Positions 1,980 through 17,688 of a DNA stretch of 64,000 nt are shown here, piece by piece. The position numbers and the translations under genes are program-made. The notes below the pieces were generated by a model. That model saw only the letters and a list, made by a program, of their open reading frames with translations, searched no databases and was not told the origin of the DNA. The DNA lies in NCBI RefSeq assembly GCF_030384885.1, contig NZ_CP128613.1; one strand, given 5' to 3'. This stretch comes from Escherichia coli. GTDB taxonomy: Bacteria; Pseudomonadota; Gammaproteobacteria; Enterobacterales; Enterobacteriaceae. Positions within the stretch are counted from its first letter, which is position 1, and every line of letters begins with the position of its first letter.

Positions 1980-1991
1980 CCATCAACGAAA

Positions 1992-2016
1992 AAGCCCACA
2001 TCTGTGGGCTTTCATA
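1992..2016 (+). terminator. Rho-independent terminator downstream of autotransporter gene
   Basis: Hairpin gcccaca-tct-gtgggc followed by a short T-rich tract. Confidence 0.45.
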
Positions 2017-2139
2017 TCACCAGGAGCCGCGGCTCCTTTGCGTATCCTTTTATGTCTCCTCACCGTCTGGTCGGTGTCTTGCTGAGACTTCTAACTTCCT
2101 GTTTTTGTTGGTGTTGTCCTTACACCGTCCAATCATGAT

Positions 2140-2183
2140 TGGTGGGCTGGCGGGAGTTGAACCCGCGTCCGAAATTCCTACAT
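2140..2183. repeat. Direct repeat of the ssrA 3' end (att site of the ssrA-integrated island)
   Basis: tggtgggctggcgggagttgaacccgcgtccgaaattcctacat matches the terminal 44 nt of ssrA at 16498-16541 with one mismatch. Confidence 0.85.
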
Positions 2184-2310
2184 ACTAATAATATATCTTT
2201 AAAATCAAAATATTCTATTATTTATCAATGTATTATGTTTATGTGGTGTTAAGGGGTTTATATGGGTTTTAGTTCTCTGCCGCCAAAATGCCGCCAAAAA
2301 AATTGAATGG

Positions 2311-2336
2311 TAAAACGCCAGTTCGTTGAACTGGCG
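2311..2336 (-). terminator. Rho-independent terminator of the dcd-like/thyX-like operon
   Basis: Perfect 9-bp stem cgccagttc/gaactggcg with 3-nt loop, followed on the minus strand by a T run; lies just 3' of the thyX-like stop. Confidence 0.6.
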
Positions 2337-2346
2337 AGATCTTGTC

Positions 2347-3114
2347 TTATTGTTTTATTATCTTAACGTGCGCCGTTCCTCCATTGACTTTTTCGAAATC
2401 TTGGAACAAGGCAGGGGCATCTTGAGTTACAATATCGTAAAGTTTTTCTGAAACTGTTCTCATTTCATAGTCACCCTGTATTGCTCCTCTCATTTCGAAG
2501 AAGTGTCGAATTGCGCGAGCATTTGCTGTGACGATTATTTTTGTCTCGGTTGCATTAGGCAATATAGAGCGAGAAGCGCTTCTTAAGGCCCGCATTTTTT
2601 CTTTTTTGTTCTCATACGATTGGTTTTCACGGATTTTTTTCAAGGATTGCTTATAAAAATCCAGACTACTTTCAATATGTTGGCACCATGACTTAAACAA
2701 TTCTGGGTCATTTTTTACTTCTATAGGGGCTACGAATTCAGCATCGGATTCATCATGATACTGTTGGGATAACTGGCTATATGAAAAACCAGCTCTATGC
2801 CGAACTAGCTGGTGTGTAAATGCACGAGATACCCCAGTAATTAAAAAGGTCCAGTTCAAATGTTCTAAGACACTTTCATGCCCTTGAATAATTAAATTGT
2901 TGATATATTGACTTGTAGTCCGTGGAGACTGCTTATCCTCTCCAAAAGACATATAACATAGCCTGCCAGCGGCCTCTACCAGAAGCTCAGCTTCGGTCGC
3001 CTGCCCTTTGCGAACCCATTGCAATGATGATGTGTTTAAAAAATCATCAAAAACATTACTTTCAAATGAAGGGTGTGATATGCATTTTACTGATAAATCA
3101 GAGATTTTTATCAT
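2347..3114 (-). CDS. ThyX-like flavin-dependent thymidylate synthase homolog (divergent)
   Basis: 255 aa. Contains EHLNWTF...HQLVRHRAGFSYSQLSQQY, matching the ThyX signature (RHR followed by a conserved Ser) as recalled from Thermotoga ThyX, plus an N-terminal AAGRLCYMSF block. It has a one-residue insertion after RHR and Gln where the SxRY Arg is expected. Start codon lies 2 nt after the upstream gene's stop; SD gggag. Confidence 0.7.
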   Translation of the reverse strand: MIKISDLSVKCISHPSFESNVFDDFLNTSSLQWVRKGQATEAELLVEAAGRLCYMSFGEDKQSPRTTSQYINNLIIQGHESVLEHLNWTFLITGVSRAFTHQLVRHRAGFSYSQLSQQYHDESDAEFVAPIEVKNDPELFKSWCQHIESSLDFYKQSLKKIRENQSYENKKEKMRALRSASRSILPNATETKIIVTANARAIRHFFEMRGAIQGDYEMRTVSEKLYDIVTQDAPALFQDFEKVNGGTAHVKIIKQ

Positions 3115-3116
3115 TT

Positions 3117-3902
3117 TTACTCCCGTATAGCTTTTGGGGTGCTTACTTTAGCATCAACCTTTGGTTCGTTTGATTTAGCATTTTTTAGTAATTCAACGGT
3201 GCTTTTTAGGCTATTTATTTCATTTTGTTGAACTTTTATTGTTAATTCAAGATCTTTTGTACTACTGACATTACTGGATACTATTTGAAATAAGAAAGGA
3301 ATTGCTAGGGTTATCAACGTTAGCATTAAGGCTGCTATCGCAATTATAAAGCCAGTTTTTTTCGCAATGATTTTATTGATTTCTTTCGGAAGTCGTTTAT
3401 CAAGTCCTGCAAAATCCTTTCCCATTCTAGAAAGTTGATCATCATCCAATTTATTTACGATTTTTCCTTGGTAACCTTTAGTCGGTATTATTGTTTTAAA
3501 TAATAACATTCGGGCTACTGCTGAATTTTGTGTCAATGAGAATGGTTCTTTTGACATATTTACAAGATATATTGAAATTATGCCATTATATCCAGGGTCA
3601 ATATGCCCTGGATTCGTCATGATAATTCCATTTTTTGATAGTGTGTTTCTTGGAAATATTACACCAGCTAAATTTTTTGCAAGTTGGAATTTTTCATTTA
3701 ACTCTAATATTACAGTTTCCCCTGGCATCAGGATATGGTTGTTACGTGTTTTTTTATTGTCTTGACAGTCTGGTATATGTATTGTTTTTACAGAGAGATC
3801 AATGCTTGCAGATTGAACTTTAAATGTTCCATTTAATACCGTTAATGGATCAAAAATGTTGCCTCGCTGAATTTCATCATTGATTTCTATTTCAGACAGC
3901 AT
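3117..3902 (-). CDS. dCTP deaminase/dUTPase-fold protein with C-terminal transmembrane helix and coiled-coil tail
   Basis: 261 aa. N-terminal ~140 aa carry Dcd-family motifs (SIDLSV; LMPGETVILE; GHIDPGYNGIISIYLVN; LTQNSAVARMLLF), comparable to the E. coli Dcd IDPGW-G region. The C-terminal ~110 aa contain a 22-residue hydrophobic segment (GFIIAIAALMLTLITLAIPFLF) followed by a heptad-like polar stretch. Confidence 0.7.
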   Translation of the reverse strand: MLSEIEINDEIQRGNIFDPLTVLNGTFKVQSASIDLSVKTIHIPDCQDNKKTRNNHILMPGETVILELNEKFQLAKNLAGVIFPRNTLSKNGIIMTNPGHIDPGYNGIISIYLVNMSKEPFSLTQNSAVARMLLFKTIIPTKGYQGKIVNKLDDDQLSRMGKDFAGLDKRLPKEINKIIAKKTGFIIAIAALMLTLITLAIPFLFQIVSSNVSSTKDLELTIKVQQNEINSLKSTVELLKNAKSNEPKVDAKVSTPKAIRE

Positions 3903-3928
3903 ATCAAAATCCTATATTTGTAAAGTTA

Positions 3929-4942
3929 TTATAAATTAGCCAGAGGGTTTTTTATTACTGCATCTTCAAGATGCTCTGGGGAAAAATGTGCATAAATCAT
4001 AGTCATTTTTATATCAGAGTGGCCTAAAATATCTCGTAAAACCAAAATATTACCACCATTCATCATAAAATGGCTGGCGAATGTATGGCGCAGAACGTGA
4101 GTGCATTGGCCCTCTGGTAACTCAATGTCAGCTCGCTTTACTGCTCGTTCAAAGGCTTTTCTGCAAGGAGTGAATAACTTCCCTCTGTTCTTAGGGAGTT
4201 CGTCATACAGATCCTGAGATATCGGCACGGTACGGTTTTTCTTGCCCTTAGTCTTGGTATAGGTGATCCGGTATTTCGATAACTGATGGCCCTGCAGATT
4301 TTCGGCTTCACTCCAGCGCGCGCCGGTGGCCAGGCATATTTTTGTAATTAAAAGTAGACTGGGGCTTTGAGAATCAGCACAGGCATCCAGCAGACGTTTA
4401 ATTTCTTCCGGGGTCAGGAACGACAGTTCACCCTCAGCAATTTTAAATGTTGGCAGCCCGGCAAGCGGATTGGGGGCTGACCAGTGGCCCAACTTTTTCA
4501 GTGTGCCAAAAACAGATGATAGGTTGCGCTGTTCAAGGTTTACAGTGCGGGGCTTAACGGGCGACATAAGCGTGCCCTCTTCATTTCGCACTTCACCTTT
4601 TAGCCGCGCTTCTCGGTATTTAGTAAAATCACCGGCTGTCAGCTCTGAGGCGATGGGATCGCCTAGACCATTACAGATAATTCTAAGTTTCGCCATGAGG
4701 CGCTTGGGGTCTGCGAGTGTTTGACCATACAGGGAATACCACTGCTCAATTAATTCTGATAGGTGTCGCCGATCTTCCTTTTCCCCCAGCCATGGCTTTT
4801 TGTTCACTTCTTCCATTGTGAAGCTTTCAAAAGCAATGGCTTCGCCTTTCGTAGCAAATTGCTTACGCACGCGCTTGCCATTGCGTCCATGGGGATAGCA
4901 CTCGCACAACCATTTACCGTTTGGCTGTTTTCTGACAGTCAT
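3929..4942 (-). CDS. int: Phage integrase, tyrosine recombinase (P2/186-type)
   Basis: 337 aa. Catalytic residues in conserved context: ATGARWSE (Arg), HVLRHTF (His-x-x-Arg), MIYAHF (Tyr). Directly downstream of the cI-like gene as in the coliphage 186 lysogeny operon. Confidence 0.85.
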   Translation of the reverse strand: MTVRKQPNGKWLCECYPHGRNGKRVRKQFATKGEAIAFESFTMEEVNKKPWLGEKEDRRHLSELIEQWYSLYGQTLADPKRLMAKLRIICNGLGDPIASELTAGDFTKYREARLKGEVRNEEGTLMSPVKPRTVNLEQRNLSSVFGTLKKLGHWSAPNPLAGLPTFKIAEGELSFLTPEEIKRLLDACADSQSPSLLLITKICLATGARWSEAENLQGHQLSKYRITYTKTKGKKNRTVPISQDLYDELPKNRGKLFTPCRKAFERAVKRADIELPEGQCTHVLRHTFASHFMMNGGNILVLRDILGHSDIKMTMIYAHFSPEHLEDAVIKNPLANL

Positions 4943-4944
4943 GT

Positions 4945-5577
4945 TTAGATACTCTTTATTACTTTGACTGCACGCCCAATAACTTCCACATCATCAGTAG
5001 AGCACTCGAAAGACGCTTCATCTTGATTTACTACAATCTTATTGCCGGGAATCCGCATGATTTTTGCAACAATAATCATTCCATCAATATTGATAAGCCA
5101 GAATCCATTGCTGACCTGTTTAATTGATTTATCGATGAGATAACAATTAGTAGGGGTTTCTAAGAACATCAATTCTTCATAATCTGCAGGTAATATGCTG
5201 TGGTCTAGGAAAATCTCTTCATCAATACTGAGTTGTCCATTCTCCAGGGTTCCTTTAGGAATAGCTGGAGTTATGAGTTTGGATAACGGTTTAATTGCTT
5301 GTTTGTTCTCATTATGAGAACTTTTCTCAGGCTCAGCTCCTCCTTTCATGCTTCCCTGTCCTGTAGCTAACCAAAGCAACGAAACACCGGTTTCTAGTGC
5401 GCACTGAATTATCCAGTCAGCAGGAAAGCTGTCACGTAACACTCTGTTTGCCATAGTGCTTTTTGAGACATTCAGGTGCTCGCTTAATGCCTGCTTAGTT
5501 GTGAATCCATAAGCCTCAAGCAGCCTTTCAATAGCTGCCTTACCTCCCGTATCGGAACCCATTCTGATGTTTAACAT
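4945..5577 (-). CDS. cI: Phage CI-type repressor (186 cI-like)
   Basis: N-terminal HTH region (LEAYGF...CALETGVSLLWLATGQG) resembles the coliphage 186 CI N-terminal domain; divergent from the apl-like gene. Confidence 0.65.
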   Translation of the reverse strand: MLNIRMGSDTGGKAAIERLLEAYGFTTKQALSEHLNVSKSTMANRVLRDSFPADWIIQCALETGVSLLWLATGQGSMKGGAEPEKSSHNENKQAIKPLSKLITPAIPKGTLENGQLSIDEEIFLDHSILPADYEELMFLETPTNCYLIDKSIKQVSNGFWLINIDGMIIVAKIMRIPGNKIVVNQDEASFECSTDDVEVIGRAVKVIKSI

Positions 5578-5698
5578 TGGTGATCTCCATTTGACAATCT
5601 TGAATCAAGATCGTAATGTCTTCATGTCTCTTGATGTGAGAGTTTAAGAGACGGGCTAAAACGAACTAACACGCACACAAAGTAAGAGATACTGCACT

Positions 5699-5941
5699 AT
5701 GAGTACTGATATTTCAATTCGTGTACCAAAAGAGATGGCTACGCCTGCAGAGTTCGCAGAGTGGGAGGGTATTTCCCGCGGCTCTGTTTACCAAAAAATT
5801 CACCATGGTCAACTTGCTAAGTACATGGTCAAGAAAGAAAAAAACAAAGGCCGCGTAAGCCTGCGTTATCTGATGTACAAAACCGATCAGGTCCGTGAAT
5901 CCCTCGGTCATTCCAACTTCCGCGTCATTGTTGGTAAGTAA
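5699..5941 (+). CDS. Apl/Cox-like small DNA-binding protein (excisionase/early repressor)
   Basis: 80-aa basic protein, first gene of the rightward early operon divergent from cI, by synteny with 186 apl / P2 cox. Confidence 0.5.
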   Translation: MSTDISIRVPKEMATPAEFAEWEGISRGSVYQKIHHGQLAKYMVKKEKNKGRVSLRYLMYKTDQVRESLGHSNFRVIVGK

Positions 5942-5973
5942 GTTCAATTATGGGAACTTTCTAAGGGGGCACC

Positions 5974-6483
5974 ATGTTTGATTACAAGATTTCCAAACAT
6001 CCGCATTTCGATGAAGCCTGTAGGGCTTTTGCACTGCGCCACAACCTGGTGCAACTGGCAGAACGTGCAGGCATGAATGTGCAGATTCTGCGGAACAAGC
6101 TGAACCCAGCTCAACCTCATTTATTAACTGCACCAGAAATCTGGTTGCTTACCGATCTGACTGAAGATTCAACGCTGGTAGATGGTTTTCTGGCTCAGAT
6201 TCACTGCCTGCCATGTGTACCGATTAATGAGGTGGCAAAAGAGAAACTGCCACATTACGTCATGAGTGCAACCGCAGAGATCGGGCGTGTCGCGGCAGGT
6301 GCGGTTTCTGGCGATGTAAAAACCAGTGCAGGCCGTCGTGATGCGATCAGCAGCATTAACTCTGTTACACGACTGATGGCGCTGGCTGCTGTTTCATTGC
6401 AGGCCCGTTTACAGGCTAATCCTGCGATGGCGAGTGCGGTTGATACCGTGACTGGCCTCGGTGCTTCATTCGGTTTGCTGTGA
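5974..6483 (+). CDS. cII: CII-like lysogeny establishment regulator (186-type)
   Basis: 169 aa, positioned after the apl-like gene; size and position match 186 CII as recalled. Confidence 0.5.
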
Positions 6484-6490
6484 GGTGCTT

Positions 6491-6787
6491 ATGCTGATGA
6501 AAGAACCATCATTTGCATCGCTCCTGGTAAAACAAAGTCCGGCAATGCACTACGGTCACGGCTGGATCATGGGTGAGGATGGTAAACGCTGGCATCCGTA
6601 CCGTTCACAAGATGAATTGCTGTCTGAATTGACCACGAGGAAACGGAGAAAGTCCAAATGTATGCGGCAGAAAATAAAGTGGTTTATCACTTTCGTTACA
6701 GAGGGGAGAATTATTCAGTACCTGAAGATGATTTGCTCTGTTGCTATCCGTCGTTGTCGGGCGATGGTAGCTACTTTTTCACGCTAA
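6491..6787 (+). CDS. Hypothetical prophage early protein
   Basis: ORF with SD gaggtg 4 nt upstream of ATG at 6491; overlaps the next ORF out of frame, so one of the two may be spurious. Confidence 0.3.
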   Translation: MLMKEPSFASLLVKQSPAMHYGHGWIMGEDGKRWHPYRSQDELLSELTTRKRRKSKCMRQKIKWFITFVTEGRIIQYLKMICSVAIRRCRAMVATFSR

Positions 6788-6882
6788 AGGATGGAACCTT
6801 TATACGTGGTGAAAAAGTACAAGAAGTGATGCGTATAAAGACATCACCTCTTGAACGTTATCGGCGAAATATTTATCGGTAA
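6658..6882 (+). CDS. Hypothetical prophage early protein
   Basis: 74-aa ORF with SD ggag upstream. Confidence 0.35.
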   Translation: MYAAENKVVYHFRYRGENYSVPEDDLLCCYPSLSGDGSYFFTLKDGTFIRGEKVQEVMRIKTSPLERYRRNIYR

Positions 6883-7121
6883 CGATCTATCAGTGTCTGT
6901 ATCAGATGAGTGAATTCTTGTTGTTTAACCGAACCTAAAGGAAGTTTGTTTAATTCTTCGCGGAGGAGCTCAAAAAATGCTGATTGATTTGCTGAGTCAG
7001 TTCGAAATAAGGAGTGGATCAGACCTGAAACAAGAATTCGTTGAACAGCAACCTCATCGCGAAGACTGGAGATCTCGTTTTCAAGTTGCTCTATACGCTC
7101 TCTTTCAACCGGGTTCAACAT
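6873..7121 (-). CDS. Hypothetical small coiled-coil protein, antisense to the early operon
   Basis: 82-aa ORF with heptad-like ERIEQLENEISSLRDEVAVQR; its orientation is opposite to the surrounding early genes. Confidence 0.3.
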   Translation of the reverse strand: MLNPVERERIEQLENEISSLRDEVAVQRILVSGLIHSLFRTDSANQSAFFELLREELNKLPLGSVKQQEFTHLIQTLIDRYR

Positions 7122-7202
7122 TGATGATTCCTTCTAGCTATCAATATGTTGGTAATGGATCATATCAAAAATTTTTTAGTAGATGTGTTGTGGGATGCAT
7201 AA

Positions 7203-7544
7203 ATGGCTATTGAAGGCACTGCGGCGACTGTTCCATTAAGCCCCGGTGAACGCCTGAATGGACTTAATCACATTGCGGAGTTAAGGGCGAAAGTTTTTGG
7301 CCTGAATATTGAGTCAGAGCTTGAGCGGTTTATTAAAGATATGCGTGATTCACGGGATATTAATAGCGAACAAAATAAACGGGCACTGGCTGCCATATTC
7401 TTTATGGCAAAAATTCCAGCTGAACGTCATAGCATCAGCATTAATGAGCTGACCACTGACGAAAAGCGGGAGTTGATTAAAGCAATGAATCATTTTCGTG
7501 CAGTGGTGAGCTTATTTCCCAGACGGCTAACCATGCCGAATTAA
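7203..7544 (+). CDS. Hypothetical prophage early protein
   Basis: 113-aa ORF in the early operon. Confidence 0.4.
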   Translation: MAIEGTAATVPLSPGERLNGLNHIAELRAKVFGLNIESELERFIKDMRDSRDINSEQNKRALAAIFFMAKIPAERHSISINELTTDEKRELIKAMNHFRAVVSLFPRRLTMPN

Positions 7545-7611
7545 CCAACTAATGAAATTAATGGCGTAAACCCGCCGGGCATCCCTTTATCTAAATTCAG
7601 GAGAATTGATT

Positions 7612-7845
7612 ATGCGTAATATTGAAACCCTCTCGACCAAAACCGGACCGGATGACGCAGGGCTTAATATTTTACTGACAGAGGCTCGTCTGGAAGAACG
7701 CCGGGCAAGGGCTGAAGCAATGGCAGCTCGCCTTGATAGCCTGGCGTGTCATATCACATCCCGCCAGCTAACCCACGTCGAAGCGGCAGAACTGCTTCGT
7801 GTGACTGCTGAAGCAATCCAGAACGAAGCGCAGGAGATCCACTGA
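7612..7845 (+). CDS. Hypothetical prophage early protein
   Basis: ATG at 7612 preceded by SD aggaga; 77 aa. Confidence 0.4.
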   Translation: MRNIETLSTKTGPDDAGLNILLTEARLEERRARAEAMAARLDSLACHITSRQLTHVEAAELLRVTAEAIQNEAQEIH

Positions 7846-8072
7846 TGGCTGATGCAATGGATCTCGTACAGCAGCGCGTTGAAGAAGAACGCCAACGCCA
7901 TATCCGTGCTGCCCGTGCCAAAACGCCGGGCGTGTCCCGCGTGCTTTGCATTGAGTGTGAAGCGCCAATTCCGCCAGCACGCCGCCGTGCCATTCCGGGT
8001 GTGCAGCTTTGCATTACCTGTCAGGAAATCGCAGAGCTGAAAGGCAAACATTACAACGGAGGTGCTGTATGA
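7845..8072 (+). CDS. TraR/DksA-family C4 zinc-finger protein (phage)
   Basis: CIECEAPIPPARRRAIPGVQLCITC: two CxxC pairs with the spacing typical of TraR/DksA zinc fingers, common in P2/186-like early regions. Confidence 0.65.
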   Translation: MADAMDLVQQRVEEERQRHIRAARAKTPGVSRVLCIECEAPIPPARRRAIPGVQLCITCQEIAELKGKHYNGGAV

Positions 8073-8926
8073 GCACCATCCTGAAATGGGCGGGAAATAA
8101 AACTGCCATAATGTCCGAACTGAAAAAACATCTTCCTGCTGGCCCGCGACTGGTTGAACCTTTCGCGGGTTCCTGTGCTGTGATGATGGAGACGGATTAT
8201 CCCAGCTATCTGGTTGCGGATATTAATCCTGATTTAATCAACCTCTATAAAAAGGTTGCCGCTGATTGTGAATCGTTTATATCTCGCGCCAGAGTTTTAT
8301 TTGAGATCGCAAACAGGGAGGTGGCTTATTACAACATAAGGCAGGAGTTTAATTACTCAACTGAAATTACTGATTTCATGAAAGCGGTATATTTCCTGTA
8401 TCTCAATCGTCACGGTTACCGTGGTTTATGTCGCTATAACAAGAGCGGGCATTTCAACATTCCCTACGGTAATTATAAAAATCCGTATTTCCCTGAAAAA
8501 GAAATTCGCGCATTTGCAGAAAAGGCCCAGCGAGCAACGTTTATCTGCGCCAGCTTTGATGAAACGCTGGCGATGTTGAAGGCGGGGGATGTGGTGTATT
8601 GCGATCCGCCGTATGACGGTACGTTTTCCGGCTATCACACTGACGGCTTCACTGAAGATGACCAGTATCACCTGGCATCTGTTCTTGAACATCGGTCATC
8701 AGAAGGACATCCGGTCATTGTTTCTAACAGTGACACATCCCTGATCCGTTCGCTGTATCGCAATTTTACTCACCACTACATCAAGGCAAAACGCAGCATC
8801 GGTGTGGCAGCTGGCGAGGGTAAATCAGCAACAGAAATCATTGCTGTTTCCGGGCCGCGCTGCTGGGTGGGATTTGATTATTCGCGTGGCGTGGATAGTT
8901 CTGCCGTGTACGGAGTACGTGCATGA
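8069..8926 (+). CDS. dam: DNA adenine methyltransferase (Dam-like, phage-encoded)
   Basis: N-terminal [11 protein letters not shown]...EPFAGS (AdoMet-binding motif) and the catalytic DPPY motif (VYCDPPYDG); start overlaps the stop of the upstream ORF. Confidence 0.8.
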
Positions 8927-11337
8927 GTCATGCCGATATGAACAACTGCTGCGGCTTTAACGAAGCTGCCGCATCGTTCTCATGGAACAGCCCGAAAAAG
9001 GCCATTAACCCTTATCTGGACCCGGCGGAAGTTGCGCCGGTTTCTGCGCTTTCAAACCTGATCACTCTGTACGCTACTGATAACGAGCAGGAACAACTGC
9101 GCCGCGAGGCACTGAGTGATCAGGTCTGGGAGCGTTATTTCTTTAATGAATCCCGTGATCCTGTCCAACGCGAAATGGAGCAGGATAAGCTCATTAGCCG
9201 GGCAAAGATGGCGCATGAGCAGCAGCGTTTTAATCCAGACATGGTCATTCTGACTGACGTCAACGCCCAGCCTTCCCATATCAGCAAGCCGCTGATGCAA
9301 CGTATTGAATATTTCAGCAGCCTGGGCAGGCCAAAGGCTTATTCCCGCTATTTGCGTGAGACGATTAAGCCATGTCTGGAACGACTGGAGCATGTACGCG
9401 ACAGCCAGCTATCTGCATCTTTTCGTTTTATGGCAAGCCATGAAGGGCTGGACGGTCTGCTGATCCTGCCTGAAATGAGTCAGGATCAGGTGAAACGCCT
9501 GTCTACCCTTGTCGCTGCGCATATGAGCATGTGTCTTGATGCCGCTTGTGGTGATTTGTACGCCTCCGATGATGTTAAGCCAGAAGAAATCCGCAAGACA
9601 TGGGAAAAGGTGGCTGCAGAAACCCTGCGACTGGATGTCATACCGCCTGCGTTTGAGCAACTCCGCCGGAAAAGAAACCGCCGCAAACCTGTGCCTTATG
9701 AACTCATTCCGGGTTCGCTGGCGCGTATGCTGTGCGCCGACTGGTGGTATCGGAAATTATGGAAGATACGTTGCGAATGGCGGGAAGAGCAGTTGCGTGC
9801 TGTCTGCCTGGTCAGCAAAAAAGCATCTCCCTATGTCAGCTATGAAGCCGTGATGCATAAACGTGAGCAGCGCCGTAAGTCGCTGGAGTTTTTCCGTTCT
9901 CATGAACTGGTGAACGAAGACGGCGACACGCTGAACATGGAGGATGTGGTAAACACCAGCAGCAGCAACCCGGCGCATCGCCGCAACGAGATGATGGCCT
10001 GTGTTAAAGGCCTAGAGCTTATCGCGGAAATGCGTGGTGACTGCGCCGTTTTCTACACCATCACCTGTCCGTCACGTTTCCATTCCACGCTAAATAACGG
10101 CAGGCCAAACCCGACCTGGACCAACGCGACAGTAAGACAAAGCAGCGATTATCTGGTCGGCATGTTTGCTGCATTTCGTAAGGCTATGCACAAAGCCGGG
10201 TTGCGCTGGTATGGCGTGCGGGTGGCTGAGCCGCATCATGACGGCACAGTTCACTGGCACCTGTTGTGTTTCATGCGCAAAAAAGACCGCCGCGCCATTA
10301 CTGCATTGTTGCGTAAGTTTGCCATCCGTGAAGACCGCGAGGAGCTGGGCAATAACACGGGGCCACGCTTTAAGTCTGAGCTGATAAACCCGCGCAAAGG
10401 AACGCCGACAAGCTACATTGCGAAATATATCAGTAAGAATATTGACGGGCGTGGTCTGGCTGGCGAGATCAGTAAGGAAACGGGTAAATCCCTGCGTGAT
10501 AACGCTGAATACGTTAATGCCTGGGCGTCTCTGCATCGTGTTCAGCAATTCCGCTTCTTTGGCATTCCGGGGCGTCAGGCTTACCGTGAACTGCGATTGC
10601 TGGCTGGTCAGGCGGCAAGGCAACAGGGTGACAAAAAAGCAGGTGCGCCGGTACTGGATAACCCGCGCCTTGATGCCATCCTGGCTGCTGCTGATGCTGG
10701 TTGTTTTGCCTCCTACATCATGAAGCAGGGCGGCGTACTGGTTCCCCGCAAATATCACCTCATCAGAACCGCTTATGAAATCAACGAAGAGCCGACCGCC
10801 TATGGCGATCACGGTATTCGTATTTATGGCATCTGGTCACCCATTGCAGAGGGCAAGATCTGCACTCATGCAGTGAAGTGGAAAATGGTTCGTAAGGCCG
10901 TTGACGTTCAGGAGGCGGCAGCCGACCAGGGCGCTTGCGCCCCTTGGACTCGTGGCAATAACTGTCCCCTTGCTGAAAATTTGAACCAACAGGAGAAAGA
11001 TAAATCAGCTGATGGGGACACCAGAACGGACATTACCCGCATGGATGACAAGGAGTTGCACGATTACCTGCACAGTATGAGCAAAAAAGAGCGCCGGGAA
11101 CTGGCTGCAAGGTTACGCCAGGTGAAACCGAAACGGCGTAAAGACTACAAACAGCGAATTACAGACCATCAGCGACAGCAGCTCGTCTATGAACTGAAGT
11201 CCAGGGGATTTGATGGCAGTGAGAAAGAAGTCGATTTGCTCCTTCGCGGTGGCAGTATTCCGTCAGGAGCAGGCCTGCGTATTTTCTATCGGAACCAGCG
11301 TCTGAAGGAAGATGATAAGTGGCGGAACCTGTATTAA
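8923..11337 (+). CDS. Phage replication initiation protein (P2 gpA-like rolling-circle endonuclease)
   Basis: 804 aa. HUH-type motif VHWHLLCF and active-site Tyr block [12 protein letters not shown], as in P2/186 gene A. Confidence 0.8.
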
Positions 11338-11429
11338 TTACGCGGGTTAACAATTCGTGCCCTTAATAATACCAGGCATATCAGGCTGATGAATGTAAAA
11401 AAACGTTTTACATCAGTAAGATTATTATA

Positions 11430-11449
11430 TACTGTAAATATAAACAGTG
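11430..11449 (+). promoter_or_regulatory. LexA (SOS) box upstream of small ORF plus dinI-like gene
   Basis: tactgtaaatataaacagtg: CTGT-N8-ACAG with an AT-rich spacer, ~40 nt upstream of the ATG at 11490. Confidence 0.65.
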
Positions 11450-11489
11450 GTTATCTATACAGTATTGCTTTGGTGTCATAGGAGGAAAG

Positions 11490-11678
11490 ATGCAGGACTA
11501 TTTTTTGGAGTCTTTGAAGCTCCAGCGCATTGATTTTTTTCTTAAGCTTGTAGCGGCTAGTGAGTGTAGTGATGAAGAGAAGGGGCTGGCTCTGCAGTGG
11601 GTTTCTGAACTGACAGATGAACTCATGGCAAAAATCAGAACCCACGAATACAACCGCTCAATGGATGTCATCAGCTGA
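11490..11678 (+). CDS. Hypothetical SOS-regulated small protein (possible Tum-like antirepressor position)
   Basis: 62-aa ORF with SD aggagg, immediately downstream of the LexA box; position analogous to 186 tum, but no recognised sequence similarity. Confidence 0.4.
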   Translation: MQDYFLESLKLQRIDFFLKLVAASECSDEEKGLALQWVSELTDELMAKIRTHEYNRSMDVIS

Positions 11679-11688
11679 GGTGACTTTT

Positions 11689-11922
11689 ATGCGCATTGAA
11701 ATAATGATCGATAAAGAGCAGAAGATTAGCCAGTCTACCCTGGACGCCCTTGAATCCGAGCTTTACCGCAATCTGCGCCCCCTGTATCCCAAAACGGTAA
11801 TCCGTATCCGTAAAGGTAGCTCTAACGGTGTGGAACTGACCGGACTGCAACTGGACGAAGAAAGAAAACAAGTGATGAAAATTATGCAGAAGGTGTGGGA
11901 AGACGACAGCTGGCTGCATTGA
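11689..11922 (+). CDS. DinI-family protein
   Basis: 77 aa, MRIEIMIDK...LDALESEL...KVWEDDSWL parallels E. coli DinI (MRIEVTIAK...IDALAGEL...ETWESADDWF). Confidence 0.7.
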   Translation: MRIEIMIDKEQKISQSTLDALESELYRNLRPLYPKTVIRIRKGSSNGVELTGLQLDEERKQVMKIMQKVWEDDSWLH

Positions 11923-12035
11923 TTTTGTCAATAGACGCTTGTTTTTACTAATCAAAAAGGGTTACATATGAGTGAGAGGCGATGTCAATCAGATATCGCC
12001 TTGTTTTTTGTCAAGAAAAGAATAATAGGCTAAAA

Positions 12036-12713
12036 ATGAAAATTAATAATGTAGCGTTACCAATATCTCTTGCTGTAATCCTAACTGGTTGCGTGCCACA
12101 TGCTTCTAACCGAAATATCACTGCTATTGAAGTGGTGAAGCCTGCTATTGGGCAAAGTGCTACCGCCTACATGGGCGATCCCATTATCACATCTGCTACT
12201 GGATTTAAAACGGACGTACTAGAACTTGGTGCGGCTAATGGTGCATTGTCTTCTATCGCTGCTGGTACATATTGCAGTGAGGGGAATGGAATTTACCGCA
12301 ATTATCATAACCCTCAAGCTGTTGCGTTAAAAAATCTCTATGGGCAAATCGGTAACTATGTTGATTATGTTAGTTACGATGCTGCAAAAAATGAGATATC
12401 ACCGCCAAATGGTACTTCTTATACTGCATCAGAAATTTCTATCAAACGTGTTCCTGATGGGCTGTGTCGAGTTAGTAACTCATTGGTTAAGACTATCGAA
12501 TACAATGGAAATGCAGGCGGTGTAATGAAGTTCACCTATCGTGAATTTGCAAACGATATGGCTCGTGCAGCATTTACAACAGATTTTTCTGTAGATTCTA
12601 AGGGAAGTGACGTTATCGCTTACAAAGGTGCCAAGTTCAAAGTGAACAAGGCTGATAACTCGTCTATTTCTTATACAATTATTTCTGGCTTTGACAAGGC
12701 TGTCACGTTCTAG
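12036..12713 (+). CDS. Prophage-encoded lipoprotein (moron)
   Basis: Signal peptide MKINNVALPISLAVILTGC with lipobox LTGC; the remainder is Ser/Thr/Asn-rich with no recognised domain. Confidence 0.6.
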   Translation: MKINNVALPISLAVILTGCVPHASNRNITAIEVVKPAIGQSATAYMGDPIITSATGFKTDVLELGAANGALSSIAAGTYCSEGNGIYRNYHNPQAVALKNLYGQIGNYVDYVSYDAAKNEISPPNGTSYTASEISIKRVPDGLCRVSNSLVKTIEYNGNAGGVMKFTYREFANDMARAAFTTDFSVDSKGSDVIAYKGAKFKVNKADNSSISYTIISGFDKAVTF

Positions 12714-12805
12714 GTTTCACGCTTACTGAGTATGTTACGATTTTGCACATTCTGCATAAACGCGCATGTCTATGCTGCATGAGATCGCATGATCGTTTGA
12801 GGATC

Positions 12806-12833
12806 TTTTGTGTTAAGGCCCGCCAGTTCTGGC
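12806..12833 (+). terminator. Rho-independent terminator after lipoprotein gene
   Basis: GC-rich stem gcccgcc/ggcgggc followed by tttt. Confidence 0.6.
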
Positions 12834-13038
12834 GGGCTTTTGCGTAGATCATGCAGGTGCATGAAAACCACTACATAAAGCGGGCAGGCGTGGCGGGGAT
12901 ACGAGCGCGCGTTATGACAAATAGATGATTAGCCTGATTTATTCACAGCTGTATAAATGATCACCTTGTAATTAGGTAAGTAATGTCTTCTATTATCATT
13001 GATTTGATAGGATTAATCTGTTTTTTGAGGATTAGAGG

Positions 13039-15375
13039 ATGATTGAAGAGGTAGTTATTGACAAAGTAGGCTCATATAATGGCCCTACTCAGCTTTTACA
13101 TGGGCTTTCTAAATTTAACTATTTATATGGAGCTAATGGTGCAGGTAAAACAACTATAAGTAAAATTATTAATGACCCTGAACAATATCCAACATGTCCG
13201 ATTAAATGGAAAAATAATATATCTTTAATAAGCTACGTATATAATAAAGATTTTGTTGAAAGAAATTTTAGTCAAGATAAAATTAAAGGTGTATTTACCC
13301 TTGGTAGCGATCTTAAGGAGGATGAAGAGAAATTAATATCTCTTGAAGAAGAAAAAAATAAGCTAATAGAATCTATTATAGCAAAGGAAAAGCTAATAGA
13401 TGGTGGTGATAATATATTAGGCGTTGTTAAACAAATCGAAGACCATGAAAAATCTTTTAAAGATTCATGTTGGAAGCAAAAAGTAAAACATGATAATGTG
13501 TTCTCAAAGGCTTTTGAGGGATTAAGGAATAGTAGTGAAAAATTTAAAGCTAGAGTGTTGGCTGAGTATGAAAATAACACATCAGAAGTTTGCTCAATAG
13601 CAGAGCTAATTGAGAAAGCAAAAATTGTTTTTTCTACTGAATTGACATCACATGTATCAATTACAATTCCATCCTTCAATGGGATAGATGATATTTTGAG
13701 TAGGGAGATTTGGAGTGAGCGTATTCTAGGGAAAAAAGACGTTAGTGTTTCAGACTTAATTACAATGCTCAATAACAGTGATTGGGTTAAGGAAGGTTTA
13801 ACATATTTCAGTAAATCTAATCCCAAGTGCCCATTCTGCCAGCAGGATGTAAATGATAATATATTTGATAATCTATCATCATATTTTGATAAAACATATG
13901 AGTTAAAAAAAAGAGAAATCGATGCATTGGTTTTACAATATGAACATCAACTTAATAATATCTTGCAGGCGATAGATGATATAAGGGCGATTAAATCTCC
14001 ATTCATAAATTATGAAGTGTTTGAGGATAAGGCTAAGATAGTATTATCTGAATTAAACAAGAATTTTGAATTGGCAAAAAATAAACGCAATTTTTTAAGT
14101 GAATCAGTTCATTTTAGTGACTTAAGTGAAGTTGTTGATGATTTTATTTCTTTTTTGAATGATTCAAATCTATTGATAGATAATAATAACAAAATACACA
14201 GTAATAGAAAGGTAGAGGCTAGTAATCTTTCTAATCAGATATGGGCATATATCGTAAAGGTGGAGTTAAAGTCTGAAATAACTTCTTACCGTAGCGAATC
14301 TGATAAATTTAATAGGAAGTTACAAGGGCTTAAATCTGGGTTAGAGGAAGACAAAAAGAAGTTAATGTTAAATGCTTCGGCTATTGAGGCAATTGAGTCT
14401 AATAAAACCAGTACTCTTCCAACTATTACAAAAATTAACAAGATTCTGGATTCTTATGGCTTCAAAAATTTTTACTTAAAACCCTCCGAAGATAAAAAGC
14501 ATTATATGATAGTGAGAGATAGTGGAGATAATGCTCGTACAACCCTTAGCGAGGGAGAAAAGACATTTATCACTTTTTTGTATTTTTATAGCCTTGTTAG
14601 AGGGAGTGATAATGCATCAGGTGTTTTAGATGATCGTGTTGTAGTATTTGATGATCCAATTTCAAGTTTAGATAGTGATATTCTGTTTATTGTAAGTTCG
14701 TTGATTAAAGATTTAATGGAGGATGTTCGTAAGGATGAAGGAAATATTAAGCAAATTATATTCCTTACACATAATATTTATTTTCATAAAGAGTTGACTT
14801 TTAATACTAAAAGATCCGGTAATCAAGCAATGAAAGAGGAGACTTTTTGGATTGTAAGGAAAAAAGGGAAGGTCTCATATCTTGAAAAGTGCGAATCAAA
14901 CCCAATAAAAACGTCTTATGATTTGCTCTGGTGCGAATTGAGAAGAACAGATATTAATAATAATACTATACAAAATACAATGCGAAGGATTTTGGAGAAT
15001 TACTTTAAGATATTAGGTGGGATGGATATTAGGAAGCTTGAATGTCATTTTTATGGTGATGAAAAAATCATATTTAAATCTTTAGTGTCATGGATTAATG
15101 ATGGTTCTCATTTTGCAGGTGATGATCTTTATATGAATTTAGATACGGAGTCTGTGCAAAAATATTTAATTGTTTTTCAGAAGATATTTGAGTGTAGTGA
15201 GCATACTGCCCATTACAAAATGATGATGGGTGAGTTTTATAGACCGTTAAATGAGTCACTTCATCTACAAGATGAGTTTGATATTGATGATAGTGCGAAT
15301 GATGAGTATGCTTCGTCAAAAATTGAGATAGAAGATGGAATAAACACATCTCTACATAGTAATACATATTTGTAA
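13039..15375 (+). CDS. RloC/PrrC-like ATPase with CxxC zinc hook (putative anticodon nuclease / abortive-infection protein)
   Basis: 778 aa, very AT-rich. N-terminal Walker A GANGAGKTT; long coiled-coil region containing CPFC; D-loop/Walker B-like VVVFDDPISSLDSD; C-terminal region with RRILENYF and downstream His residues, reminiscent of the PrrC/RloC Arg-Glu-His nuclease motif as recalled. Confidence 0.55.
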   Translation: MIEEVVIDKVGSYNGPTQLLHGLSKFNYLYGANGAGKTTISKIINDPEQYPTCPIKWKNNISLISYVYNKDFVERNFSQDKIKGVFTLGSDLKEDEEKLISLEEEKNKLIESIIAKEKLIDGGDNILGVVKQIEDHEKSFKDSCWKQKVKHDNVFSKAFEGLRNSSEKFKARVLAEYENNTSEVCSIAELIEKAKIVFSTELTSHVSITIPSFNGIDDILSREIWSERILGKKDVSVSDLITMLNNSDWVKEGLTYFSKSNPKCPFCQQDVNDNIFDNLSSYFDKTYELKKREIDALVLQYEHQLNNILQAIDDIRAIKSPFINYEVFEDKAKIVLSELNKNFELAKNKRNFLSESVHFSDLSEVVDDFISFLNDSNLLIDNNNKIHSNRKVEASNLSNQIWAYIVKVELKSEITSYRSESDKFNRKLQGLKSGLEEDKKKLMLNASAIEAIESNKTSTLPTITKINKILDSYGFKNFYLKPSEDKKHYMIVRDSGDNARTTLSEGEKTFITFLYFYSLVRGSDNASGVLDDRVVVFDDPISSLDSDILFIVSSLIKDLMEDVRKDEGNIKQIIFLTHNIYFHKELTFNTKRSGNQAMKEETFWIVRKKGKVSYLEKCESNPIKTSYDLLWCELRRTDINNNTIQNTMRRILENYFKILGGMDIRKLECHFYGDEKIIFKSLVSWINDGSHFAGDDLYMNLDTESVQKYLIVFQKIFECSEHTAHYKMMMGEFYRPLNESLHLQDEFDIDDSANDEYASSKIEIEDGINTSLHSNTYL

Positions 15376-15382
15376 TTTTATT

Positions 15383-15413
15383 GCAATTGCCAGTAGCAAC
15401 AATACGGTACTGG
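15383..15413. terminator. Bidirectional hairpin between convergent ATPase and portal-fragment genes
   Basis: 9-bp perfect inverted repeat ttgccagta...tactggcaa. Confidence 0.4.
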
Positions 15414-15424
15414 CAACTAATATT

Positions 15425-15964
15425 TTAGTTAAGCTCATATGGAGAAAATTCTATAAGTTTCTCCCCGAGCCATGCGTTTATTTCCATAAATCGTTTTTGC
15501 AAAGGAATTAATTCATTTATCACAAAAACCTTACTAGCCTTCTCCACATCCCCAAACCCCCCAACATTATTAGGCATTATCCCCATCATTTGCGGCGGCA
15601 CACGGTGTGCCGCCATCATGTCGTCCCGGCTCACGTTCTTGATATTCAGAAACTCATCCTTCGCCGCGACTTCTGACAACGGGATAATCTGAAGCCCGTC
15701 CTTTTTGCCGTTAGGAGAGTACATAAACAGGTTGCGGAAGTTGCCTGGCCCTTTGGCACTTTTCATTGCGTTGCGGAGGTTGTTCACATCTTCTTGGTTC
15801 TGTGCGGCATCGGTCATGTACATGATGAAACCTGCATGGCTGCCGTTGATGTAATACTTACGGCGGAACAGTGTGGCGGACTCGTTGAGCAGGGCTGACG
15901 GGATGGCAGAGAGATAACCTGGCAGGCCGTAGATCTCCTGGTTGATGTCCGGTTCCGCCCTTAA
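15425..15964 (-). pseudogene. Phage portal-like (P2 gpQ-like) gene fragment, 5'-truncated
   Basis: The reading frame stays open upstream of the first Met to ~15964 and then hits a stop with no start. Orientation and position (leftward, after the replication/cargo region) match P2 Q; the family assignment is from synteny and is tentative. Confidence 0.4.
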
Positions 15965-16153
15965 TCATCTCAACCATGCGTTACAGCTCGATCCCCGCTG
16001 TGGCGTGAAAAAAGACAAACAGCAGCTGGAGCGCAGACTGCGCAATGACAGCCGCTGACAGAACGTGCCCCCGCGCACGGGCGGCACGGGGTGGCGAAAG
16101 GCACAGCCACATCAAAACCCCGTCCACCGCCCTTTATTTCAGGAGAAAGCAGC

Positions 16154-16354
16154 ATGAAGTTTGTTGCGCCAGAACAGGCACCGGAACAGGCGGAAATCAT
16201 CAGAAACACGCCGTTCTGGCCTGATGTGGACCTGTCGGAGTTTCGCAGTGTCATGCGCACTGACGGCACGGTGACGCAGCCGCGTTTAAAGCAGGTTGCG
16301 CTGTCGGCAATTTCGGAGGTCAACGCACCGATACGACCATTTGCATTGATGTAA
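16154..16354 (+). pseudogene. Phage head-completion-like (P2 gpL-like) N-terminal fragment
   Basis: 66-aa ORF with SD aggaga; IIRNTPFWPDVD...PRLKQ...ISEVNA resembles my recollection of the P2 gpL N-terminus; truncated relative to ~170 aa. Confidence 0.3.
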
Positions 16355-16497
16355 ACAAAGTGAAGTTCTTCCATGTGAAACCTCTTTGCATGATTTCAAG
16401 ATGGCGACAGGCAAGATGGACGCAAAAGTCTGTCGCCATTTTGCCGCCACTACCAAAGAAAAAGGGGCTACGCTTTCACGTAACCCCTTGATTTATT

Positions 16498-16860
16498 TGG
16501 TGGAGCTGGCGGGAGTTGAACCCGCGTCCGAAATTCCTACATCCTCGGTACTACATGCTTAGTCAGTCTTTACATTCGCTTGCCAGCTGCGGACGGACAC
16601 GCCACTAACAAACTAGCCTGATTAAGTTTTAACGCTTCAACCCCAGGCAGGGCTTCCACGCGATCTCTTTTGGGTTTGACCTCTCTTGATCCCCGTCCTA
16701 AGAGCGGAGGCTAGGGAGAGAGGGCTCTAAGCAGGTTATTAAGCTGCTAAAGCGTAGTTTTCGTCGTTTGCGACTATTTTTTGCGGCTTTTTACGAGGCC
16801 AACCGCCCCTCGGCATGCACCTTGGGTTTCGCAAATCCCGTCGAATCCAGAATCAGCCCC
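16498..16860 (-). ncRNA. ssrA: tmRNA (SsrA)
   Basis: The reverse complement reads ggggctgattctggattcgacggg...gttcaactcccgccagctccacca, the E. coli tmRNA sequence, 363 nt. Confidence 0.95.
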
Positions 16861-17557: not shown

Positions 17558-17688
17558 AAGCGTCGTGAATCATCGGTAATCTGAAATCGAAAACACCCCA
17601 TATCAATCCTGCGGGGGACAAGGCTCTATCTTAGCATGAACCCGATGTTACCCAGCGCCGGGATAGCGTTTTTTTTACAGCAGGATAA

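Follow-up and report, generated by a model that had tools for sequence, protein, structure and literature searches.

A Dam methylase function was reported in 1990 for the retron-Ec67 186-related prophage, to go by a title cited in PMC7826664. The same gene, encoding 285 aa, occurs in the Felsduovirus-type phages and prophages, namely RE-2010/ELPhiS, the Fels-2 type, Cartapus, Klebsiella phage KP12 and the retron Ec67 prophage. Hsu, Inouye & Inouye reportedly described the Dam ORF of the retron-Ec67 element in 1990 as having 285 residues, about 44% identical. In the better known relatives P2 and 186, the same position between the zinc-finger gene and replication gene A is taken by other genes: orf83 (DUF5405) in P2, and orf82 (exonuclease-like), orf83 and orf84 (PAPS-reductase-like) in 186. 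These slot genes are non-essential and their proteins are unrelated to Dam; the genomes of P2 and 186 have no match to a D12 Dam and strongly avoid GATC. In 186, the gene upstream of A is translationally coupled to it, a relationship we propose for dam as well, and the 186 record states that translation of A requires translation through to the end of that upstream gene.

Here, we have analysed a 64,000-nucleotide stretch of Escherichia coli DNA (the window) containing a dam gene (Table 1) which, by sequence comparison, is the standard occupant of the variable slot between the zinc-finger gene and gene A in Felsduovirus-type (Fels-2 / RE-2010 / retron-Ec67-prophage) phages. The gene is already known, being an ordinary, routinely annotated and widespread prophage Dam: its CDS is 100% identical in nucleotide sequence to the RefSeq CDS of WP_000104157.1 ('DNA adenine methylase'), about a fifth of the complete E. 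coli genomes (1232 of the 5426) contain it at a coverage of at least 80%, and identical copies occur in complete prophages. It also turns up in 56 phage records, RE-2010 and Cartapus among them, its protein belongs to a cluster of 4038 members at 90% identity, and the known hosts of the clade that carries it are E. coli, Salmonella and Klebsiella. Nucleotide identity to the copies in Felsduovirus-type phages is 97-98.5% (about 97% for RE-2010, whose Dam protein is 98.2% identical). What differs from these phages is the carrier, which here lacks the late genes and bears other cargo. The explanation that we consider probable from these and the following comparisons is that the gene encodes a functional orphan Dam, most likely acting on GATC, which would top up GATC methylation from the lytic operon in intact relatives and is probably a silent, still-intact passenger in the element described here.

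Table 1. Coordinates of dam, its neighbours and its carrier element, counted from the first nucleotide of the window.
Feature	Position	Strand	Remarks
Distal att repeat	2146..2186	+	copy of ssrA 3' end; distal boundary of element
Tyrosine integrase of element	3929..4942	-	
cI repressor (210 aa)	4945..5577	-	Pfam Phage_CI_repr + Phage_CI_C; 186 annotation as model
cI/apl switch region with pR-like promoter (TTGACA 5591-5596)	5578..5698	.	GATC at 5582 and 5609; promoter assignment inferred
TraR/DksA-type zinc-finger ORF	7845..8072	+	stop overlaps dam start (ATGA); left edge of variable slot
dam	8069..8926	+	285-aa orphan D12-class (Dam-family) N6-adenine DNA methyltransferase; ORF, Pfam, NCBIfam, PADLOC
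AdoMet-binding motif I codons	8162..8176	+	variant F-A-G-S-C (EcoDam: F-V-G-A-G); invariant in phage clade
Catalytic motif IV DPPY codons (aa 179-182)	8603..8614	+	contain a GATC
Replication gene A (intact; 804-aa rolling-circle initiator)	8923..11337	+	PF05840 E=7e-127; start overlaps dam stop (ATGA)
LexA box, perfect	11432..11447	+	CTGTAAATATAAACAG; upstream of TumA-like/DinI-like pair
Two small ORFs at TumA/TumB (DinI-like) position	11490..11922	+	putative SOS antirepressor module
GATC-N7-GATC pair	12791..12806	.	candidate target of Dam, 96 and 85 nt leftward of cos
cos cohesive-end sequence	12887..12905	+	GGCGTGGCGGGGATACGAG; retained in remnant
Proximal att repeat	16505..16545	+	within ssrA (tmRNA) gene; proximal boundary of element

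The preliminary description of this locus had claimed an orphan Dam-type methyltransferase with a DPPY motif beside replication gene A, and this is borne out. The ORF is intact, with 285 codons running from an ATG at 8069 to a TGA at 8924-8926, and a Shine-Dalgarno sequence (GGAGG, 8059-8063) can be read upstream of the start. The protein matches Pfam PF02086 (MethyltransfD12) over its full length (aa 7-244, profile positions 1-253 of 253; E=1e-76, 258.5 bits for a cut-off of 22) and reaches 321.9 bits with the 'dam' subfamily model NCBIfam TIGR00571 (cut-off 114.85), while its 288.1 bits with the host-Dam equivalog NF008152 / PRK10904 lie below the cut-off of 441. On these scores it is a member of a paralogous phage clade, and the host chromosomal dam orthologue is excluded. 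D179-P180-P181-Y182 corresponds to EcoDam D181-Y184 in the alignment and does not vary among 18 homologues, and F32-A-G34-S-C36 occupies the position of EcoDam F35-x-G37-x-G39, its final Gly being replaced by Cys throughout the clade. The motifs follow the alpha order, with motif I, the recognition loop (aa ~110-140) and then DPPY. Domain match, motif IV, the order of motif I and the GATC-recognition residues all agree with the Dam family (D12-class, alpha-group). The best PADLOC model is 'orphan methyltransferase' (oMTase, E=3e-111). No restriction-endonuclease family was matched among the scanned ORFs of the element, which comprise most of the larger ones between the att repeats; the neighbours of dam are the TraR-like zinc-finger ORF and gpA, with no adjoining endonuclease, and two ORFs of the element are without a family (15970-16374, with no match, and 11982-12713, with phrog_1353 only). 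The enzyme is an orphan (solitary) methyltransferase in the sense that a cognate endonuclease is absent from the scanned ORFs.

The most informative comparison for specificity is with EcoDam, whose structures (PDB 2G1P, 4GOL and others) match aa 4-263 of the protein with E=2e-73; the best five structure matches are all EcoDam variants, and 47% of the 258 aligned residues are identical. EcoDam contacts GATC through R124 at Gua4, intercalation of Y119, L122 and P134 at the third base pair, and K9 and Y138 at the first (PMC4417163). All six of these residues are kept in the window protein (K9 as K6, Y119 as Y117, L122 as L120, R124 as R122, P134 as P132 and Y138 as Y136) and are invariant among the 18 clade members; in four other Peduoviridae Dams, the equivalents of R124, P134 and K9 are likewise invariant. 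Since the recognition residues are conserved, we predict a target like that of the host enzyme, most likely the adenine of GATC. The protein departs from EcoDam in substitutions (N120 to R118, R137 to N135 and G39 to C36, the last in motif I) and in the deletion of five residues after DPPY, and these changes could affect flanking preference, processivity or even specificity.

Pfam and PHROG assignments give the gene order as int-cI / apl-cII-fil-DUF5347-DUF2732-zinc finger-dam-A, followed by the Tum/DinI module and cos, which is the order of a Felsduovirus-type P2-like (Peduoviridae) early lytic operon. The apl/cox-like gene, cI and cII all lie upstream of dam, with the LexA box and DinI-like module downstream of A. 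The zinc-finger ORF is 68% identical to its 186 counterpart and gpA is 97.8% identical to RE-2010 gpA across all 804 aa. RE-2010 has the zinc finger, dam and A in the same order, with stop and start codons overlapping as they do in the window. Of the 80 related loci taken from IMG/VR by gpA alignment, all of them close relatives of at least 82% identity, 70 show this order too. It had been claimed that dam is co-transcribed with A; the ATGA overlaps on both sides, the conserved order and a + strand on which no convincing terminator is predicted between the zinc finger, dam and A support co-transcription of all three genes. For the putative SOS module the comparison points are p95/tum of 186 and tumA/tumB of PsP3, and the scan that found the LexA box also recovered the recN-proximal box at 20687 as a positive control. 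By analogy with 186, cI should silence the dam-A operon during lysogeny, and we infer both CI repression of dam and its translational coupling to gpA. Lying within the early lytic operon below the cI/apl switch, dam should therefore be silent until induction: a CI-repressed early promoter would transcribe it, a LexA-controlled Tum-like antirepressor would inactivate CI, and the enzyme would be made only after induction, in tandem with gpA translation.

To call the gene phage-encoded, as had been done, overstates the case, for what carries it is a prophage remnant left in ssrA by deletion, 14.4 kb long between its att repeats and without structural genes. Its early operon is collinear with RE-2010 at 95% nucleotide identity, and besides this operon the remnant still has int, cI, A and cos, the last of which (GGCGTGGCGGGGATACGAG) resembles those of 186 (GGCGTGGCGGGGAAAGCAT) and P2 (GGCGAGGCGGGGAAAGCAC). 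No capsid, terminase, tail or lysis gene was found in the element, the sole leftover being a portal fragment (ORF 15425-15823, with homology extending to about 15956), and it is not a functional (complete) P2-like prophage. Its cargo consists of a PDC-S06 ATPase, thyX and a dCTP-deaminase-like gene. The 243-aa ORF at 11982-12713, which matches phrog_1353, has the length and position of 186 Orf97, but this identification was rejected (BLASTP E=4.5). We also rejected a recurrent satellite-like family of int, cI, A, cos and cargo, as none of the 5426 complete E. coli genomes covers at least 80% of positions 15300-16500; the deletion junction near 15956 was found in none of them, no complete E. 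coli genome covers positions 1-18000 of the window at 80% or more, and the carrier is a one-off, unique deletion. In annotation, the element should be labelled as a defective remnant that retains cos, candidate defence cargo and a replication module inducible by SOS.

These features raise the possibility, which we take seriously without giving it even weight, that dam is idle at this locus: intact, yet under no selection, it would be carried along by a prophage in decay and be on course to disappear. All of the late genes have gone apart from the portal fragment, the junction is unique among the genomes searched, and remnants readily shed or truncate dam, which has been deleted in other ssrA remnants (TUM12355) or joined to gpD in Dam-gpD fusion proteins. 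However, the ORF is full-length and its nucleotide sequence is that of the copies in complete prophages, and int, cI, A and cos are intact; all of this suggests a recent deletion, and SOS induction might still set the module off. An idle gene at this one locus is in any case compatible with the explanation we prefer for the dam family, namely GATC top-up during lytic growth of the intact relatives.

That explanation draws on the GATC content of 12 whole Peduoviridae phage genomes, the IMG/VR loci being too closely related to serve as a contrast set. The observed/expected ratio (O/E) of GATC is 0.72-0.96 in the seven genomes with a D12 Dam and 0.13-0.48 in the five Dam-less ones (P2, 186, PsP3, Kp4887-2 and P88), a complete separation (Mann-Whitney p=0.0025, without correction for phylogeny). 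Among 4-bp palindromes, GATC ranks first for avoidance in four of the five Dam-less genomes and second in P88. The element in the window shows neither depletion nor enrichment (O/E 0.74 vs 0.75 in the host flank; 3.3 and 4.1 GATC per kb, respectively). Six of eight close relatives without dam (gpA at least 82% identical) still have an O/E of 0.77-0.85, so either Dam is not needed over short periods or GATC disappears slowly. In lambda grown on wild-type E. coli only about 46% of GATC is methylated, making host Dam limiting, and the same study gives no evidence of impaired mismatch repair (bioRxiv 10.1101/2025.08.29.673000), which weakens the MutH version of a cost of undermethylation. Because the Dam-encoding genomes are near-normal in GATC and the Dam-less ones purged, we infer a top-up role: in the intact relatives, the enzyme would supplement limiting host Dam such that rapidly rolling-circle-replicated phage DNA remains fully GATC-methylated, which may avert MutH nicking, SeqA binding or GATC-specific restriction at un- or hemi-methylated sites. 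The protective function put forward in the preliminary description survives in this modified form. The tolerance of GATC in Dam-encoding Peduoviridae fits self-methylation during lytic replication and is compatible with protection from restriction and with avoidance of MutH or SeqA, which it does not separate; for the element itself, which lacks virion genes, particle DNA in need of protection would exist only if a helper phage mobilised it.

In its classical form, anti-restriction would have the phage Dam pre-methylate progeny against DpnII/MboI-type systems of the next host, which cut unmethylated DNA, and this we regard as unlikely. Orphan phage methyltransferases are generally interpreted in this way (PMC3091744, and the title of a review). 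GATC avoidance in the Dam-less relatives would also be expected from restriction avoidance, but no GATC-specific endonuclease was found in the window ORFs scanned. Furthermore, the known hosts, E. coli, Salmonella and Klebsiella, to our knowledge all carry Dam, and GATC cutters blocked by Dam methylation would endanger only under-methylated DNA in them.

Cleavage at P1 pac depends on Dam methylation, and one might suppose from this background analogy that phage methylation regulates the life cycle here, through cos packaging or the pR/pL switch. The putative pR region does hold two GATC sites, and beside cos each GATC of the GATC-N7-GATC pair has survived in 63 of the 64 distinct cos-left sequences of the Felsduovirus type, the 7-nt spacer occurring in 14 variants; the first GATC also overlaps the third GCATG repeat, which is common to the cos-flanking regions of P2 and 186. 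However, other 4-mers in the cos-left block are conserved equally, the pair persists in close relatives without dam (L080 and L090-L092) and is absent from Kp4872-3, which belongs to another Dam-encoding genus, and host Dam could methylate the same sites. Life-cycle regulation in general is decidedly unlikely, and it would be a long shot that the Felsduovirus-type Dam acts on the cos-adjacent pair, with its full, hemi- or absent methylation gating the binding of terminase or SeqA. If true, packaging would be coupled to finished replication and methylation, as compared with P1 pac, and the pair gives a concrete and cheap opportunity to test whether packaging in a cos phage can depend on methylation.

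That dam is expressed in the lysogen and alters GATC methylation of the host (at sites that are usually protected, for instance), phase variation or virulence, as the regulatory role first suggested for it would imply, is highly improbable despite the abundance of dam in E. coli and the well-documented Dam-dependent regulation of prophage and host genes in Salmonella (PMC7380047), given its place in an early lytic operon, where it follows an intact cI and switch and precedes the SOS module, the lack of a good internal promoter (9 promoter-like matches in 5400-13100 vs 11.7 expected by chance), its absence from some ssrA remnants, and a predicted target, GATC, that is the same as that of host Dam, an outcome which the suggestion had itself named as counting against it.

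The dam gene itself matters little here, the Dam function of a related prophage having been known for decades, and it is the division of the Peduoviridae into Dam-encoding and Dam-less genomes that provides a natural comparison for asking what causes GATC avoidance in enterobacterial phages and what purpose phage Dams serve. The window enzyme resembles EcoDam in its D12 alpha-class fold, motif order, DPPY and recognition residues, but has a longer C-terminal tail bearing a conserved W-x-G-F-D motif, and its gene sits within a phage lytic operon where that of EcoDam belongs to the host dam operon. The Dams of T4/T2, P1, HP1 and Stx phages are likewise orphan adenine methyltransferases in phages of Dam-positive hosts, with which the window enzyme shares the concept of self-methylation during lytic growth. 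These are far more distant in sequence (T4 Dam, PDB 1YFJ, is still a detectable homologue at E=5e-18) and lie in other genomic contexts.

The gene under study, dam, encodes a Dam-type DNA methyltransferase, as the preliminary description had proposed. Its product covers the full D12-class N6-adenine methyltransferase domain (Pfam, E=1e-76), has the catalytic DPPY at residues 179-182 and scores 321.9 bits against the NCBIfam 'dam' subfamily TIGR00571 (cut-off 114.85); against the host-Dam equivalog NF008152 it reaches 288 bits, under the cut-off of 441. The closest solved structures are those of E. coli Dam (EcoDam; 2G1P, 4GOL and others, E=2e-73, residues 4-263), with which the protein shares 122 identities, or 47% over 258 aligned positions. 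That it lacks a cognate endonuclease also holds, with no match to an endonuclease family among the scanned ORFs of the element and 'orphan methyltransferase' as the best PADLOC model (E=3e-111). So does its position beside replication gene A (PF05840, E=7e-127), whose 804-aa ORF it overlaps at its stop codon, while the ORF on its 5' side encodes a TraR/DksA C4 zinc finger of 75 aa (Pfam).

This orphan Dam is already known and is widespread among P2-like prophages; here it lies within a defective remnant. RefSeq 'DNA adenine methylase' CDSs (WP_000104157.1) are 100% identical to it in DNA, and their neighbours are annotated 'TraR/DksA family transcriptional regulator' and 'replication endonuclease'. 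Of 5426 complete E. coli genomes, 1232 carry dam at a coverage of at least 80%; it also turns up in 56 records of phages of Klebsiella, Salmonella, Escherichia and Yersinia, and the 90%-identity cluster of its product has 4038 members. Among 80 IMG/VR loci with a gpA at least 82% identical, 70 carry dam 5' of A, mostly abutting the gpA match or within 60 nt of it, with about 10 loci having it ~0.8-1.3 kb upstream. The Dam ORF of the retron-Ec67 element described by Hsu, Inouye and Inouye in 1990 reportedly has 285 residues and is ~44% identical to E. coli Dam, which fits the length of the window protein and its identities to EcoDam. A Klebsiella study (PMC7826664) describes the trio of DksA-like protein, DNA adenine methylase and replication endonuclease in a Fels-2-like prophage. 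On the retron-Ec67 element it cites Hsu, Inouye & Inouye 1990 (PNAS 87:9454), whose title reports a Dam methylase function there, and Dodd & Egan 1996, who showed it to be a prophage related to 186.

The label 'phage-encoded' goes too far, as the carrier is what a one-off deletion has left of a Felsduovirus-type prophage, in a chromosome that the flanking genes ypjA, ssrA, smpB, ratA and recN identify as that of E. coli. Its direct repeats lie 14.4 kb apart, and capsid, terminase, tail and lysis genes are absent between them, the sole late trace being a C-terminal portal fragment whose homology stops at ~15956. The deletion junction at this point was found in none of the 5426 complete E. coli genomes, and none of these covers 80% of window 1-18000. 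The element was accordingly rejected as a phage, its late genes being gone, and as a recurrent satellite, its junction being unique. The dam gene is located in a P2/186-like early region, in which cI is followed by an Apl/Cox-like excisionase, CII, Fil, DUF5347, DUF2732, the zinc finger, dam and A, and which is collinear with Salmonella phage RE-2010 (Felsduovirus) at ~95% DNA identity. Both int and cI are intact, cos has been retained, and gpA is 97.8% identical to that of RE-2010 over all 804 residues. Given its LexA box and a split TumA/TumB arrangement of the PsP3 type, the remnant is probably still SOS-responsive. Decay paths differ among E. coli prophage remnants: in others (P0008, P0009, P0094) Dam is fused to the late gene D protein (PF05954; annotated at 456-496 aa), and from the ssrA remnant of strain TUM12355 (L002 8514-9632) dam is missing together with the 5' half of A.

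Several further ORFs accompany these genes. Variable cargo fills the interval from cos to the portal gene: here a 778-aa AAA_13 ATPase that matches PADLOC's candidate defence family PDC-S06 (E=1.5e-266) and more weakly resembles PrrC and LmuB, and in RE-2010 an AIPR-family gene. Between the att repeat and int lie thyX (FAD-dependent thymidylate synthase) and a 260-aa dCTP-deaminase/dUTPase-like gene, neither matched by PADLOC, at a position that an unrelated gene takes in RE-2010. Together they may represent nucleotide-pool cargo or serve in defence or counter-defence. A 243-aa ORF falls in phrog_1353, a family label without a function, has no annotation in RE-2010 and appears to have an internal start, at a lipoprotein-like signal, MKINNVALTISLAVILTGC. 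It matches 186 Orf97 in length and position, but homology was rejected (BLASTP E=4.5).

Coordinates of the features of the remnant and its surroundings (window positions)
Feature	Position	Strand	Remark
Direct (att) repeats, 41 nt	2146-2186 and 16505-16545		
thyX and dCTP-deaminase/dUTPase-like gene	2347-3902	-	
Integrase	3929-4942	-	
CI repressor	4945-5577	-	
GGAGG	8059-8063	+	5' of ATG 8069
ATGA overlap	8069-8072	+	stop of 75-aa ORF / dam ATG
dam ORF	8069-8926	+	285 codons, ATG 8069, TGA 8924-8926
ATGA overlap	8923-8926	+	dam stop / ATG of 804-aa ORF
LexA box, perfect	11432-11447		CTGTAAATATAAACAG; 43 nt 5' of 62-aa TumA-like ORF
TumA-like (62 aa) then DinI-like ORF	within 11432-11922		same split as PsP3 TumA/TumB
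243-aa ORF	11982-12713	+	
GATCs directly left of cos	12783, 12791, 12802, 12847		four in 68 bp
GATC-N7-GATC pair	12791 and 12802		96 and 85 nt from cos cut
cos	12887-12905		GGCGTGGCGGGGATACGAG; compare 186 GGCGTGGCGGGGAAAGCAT
778-aa ATPase	13039-15375	+	
ssrA (tmRNA gene)	16498-16860	-	3' end contains second repeat

Structural work attributes GATC recognition by EcoDam to contacts of R124 with the Gua in the fourth base pair, of L122 and P134 with the third and of K9 and Y138 with the first, to intercalation by Y119 and to a base hydrogen bond from N120 (PMC4417163). The equivalents of R124, Y119, L122, P134, K9 and Y138 in the window protein are R122, Y117, L120, P132, K6 and Y136; none of the six varies among 18 clade members with identity down to 71%, and the equivalents of R124, P134 and K9 stay the same even in four other Peduoviridae Dams of just 39-44% identity. 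Conservation of these residues strongly favours GATC as the predicted target. The protein differs from EcoDam in having R118 in place of N120 (invariant in its clade, Asn in the other phage Dams compared), N135 in place of R137, F-A-G-S-C rather than F-x-G-x-G as motif I, a 5-residue deletion directly after DPPY and an extended C-terminal tail that bears a conserved W-x-G-F-D motif, and its flanking preference or processivity may be altered. Residues 264-285 (8858-8923), past the EcoDam-aligned region, contain a W-x-G-F-D...G-x-D motif that is common to the Dam of Kp4872-3, just 39% identical, whereas three other Peduoviridae Dams have a Cys-rich CxxCG...CPDCG tail instead (tails compared in the phage loci L008:3680-4816, L011:23649-24629, L095:12112-13080 and L006:3909-4850). 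The P2-like Salmonella phage SI7 (L011 23649-29495) has three methyltransferase genes around A: a Dam-family gene, a cytosine-C5 gene and another 'DNA methylase'. Genes for DNA modification thus appear to settle quite generally in the surroundings of A.

The layout of the window is that of the 186 early lytic operon, which, according to the annotated 186 genome record, is read from pR under repression by CI, with induction via the LexA-controlled antirepressor Tum; the same record states that translating the gene upstream of A to its end 'appears necessary for translation of A protein'. In the window, the stretch from the switch region to A showed neither a convincing terminator nor a promoter above chance level. 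By analogy with 186, dam is thus expected to stay silent in the lysogen and to be produced together with gpA on induction. The proposed co-transcription of dam and A thus gains from the ATGA overlap and the lack of a convincing terminator, with operon expression itself extrapolated from 186. The further suggestion, that the enzyme modulates regulation in the lysogen, is disfavoured by this expected silence and by a predicted target that is the same as that of host Dam.

The ratio of observed GATC sites to those expected from trinucleotide frequencies (O/E) was determined for twelve whole Peduoviridae genomes with Dam-positive enterobacterial hosts. It is 0.79 in RE-2010, 0.72 in Kp4850-2, 0.90 in Kp4861-1, 0.94 in Kp4850-1, 0.89 in Kp4872-3, 0.92 in SI7 and 0.96 in phiT5282H, all of which encode a D12 Dam, and 0.13 in 186, 0.20 in P2, 0.22 in PsP3, 0.35 in Kp4887-2 and 0.48 in P88, which do not. 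These ranges are disjoint (0.72-0.96 vs 0.13-0.48; Mann-Whitney p=0.0025, not phylogeny-corrected). Of the sixteen 4-bp palindromes, none is avoided more strongly than GATC in four Dam-less genomes, and in the fifth, P88, it comes second, whereas its avoidance ranks 3rd to 13th in Dam-encoding ones; the window element (0.74) and host flank (0.75) have similar ratios. Enterobacterial phages are said to counter-select GATC, host Dam being outpaced by phage replication (a proposal attributed to McClelland 1985 and to Deschavanne and Radman 1991), and the contrast fits this proposal. A phage-borne Dam, produced with the replication initiator, would lift the constraint that limiting host Dam places on phage GATC. 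Related work by Henaut et al. 1996 is cited in a recent preprint in which GATC methylation of lambda from wild-type E. coli was just ~46% and extra Dam raised it to 77%, and which obtained no evidence of impaired mismatch repair on lambda through undermethylation (bioRxiv 10.1101/2025.08.29.673000). Close relatives without dam still have a GATC O/E of 0.77-0.85 in six of eight cases (L061, L080, L086, L090-L092), so that either dam was lost recently or the cost is small. The idea that the enzyme protects phage or island DNA is partly supported, in that Dam-encoders tolerate GATC and Dam-less phages avoid it, but the composition data do not distinguish between MutH, SeqA and restriction as the source of the cost.

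A more specific role would be in packaging. Cleavage of the P1 pac site depends on Dam methylation, and the GATC-N7-GATC pair beside cos might by analogy be a dedicated, Dam-sensitive packaging target. In an alignment of 64 distinct Felsduovirus-type cos-left sequences, each GATC of the pair is intact in 63 despite 14 variants of the 7-nt spacer, and those at 12783 and 12847 occur in just 17-18. The GATC at 12791 overlaps the third GCAT(G/T) repeat; P2 and 186 also have such repeats upstream of cos, with no GATC at the corresponding repeats. We nevertheless regard such a target as improbable, since the pair persists in dam-less close relatives, is absent from Kp4872-3, which belongs to another Dam-encoding genus, and is no better conserved than other short stretches of the cos-left block. 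The GATC contrast and this pair are the sole points that merit follow-up.

The gene itself occupies a variable slot, bounded by a conserved zinc-finger gene (68% identity to 186) and a conserved A. In close gpA relatives this slot is empty (L061, L080, L090, L091, L092) or holds a PAPS-reductase-like gene (L076, L086) or a DUF5405-like gene (L094). Where Felsduovirus-type phages have dam, P2 has DUF5405 (orf83), 186 has an exonuclease-like gene, DUF5405 and the PAPS-reductase-like orf84, and PsP3 has another, different gene.
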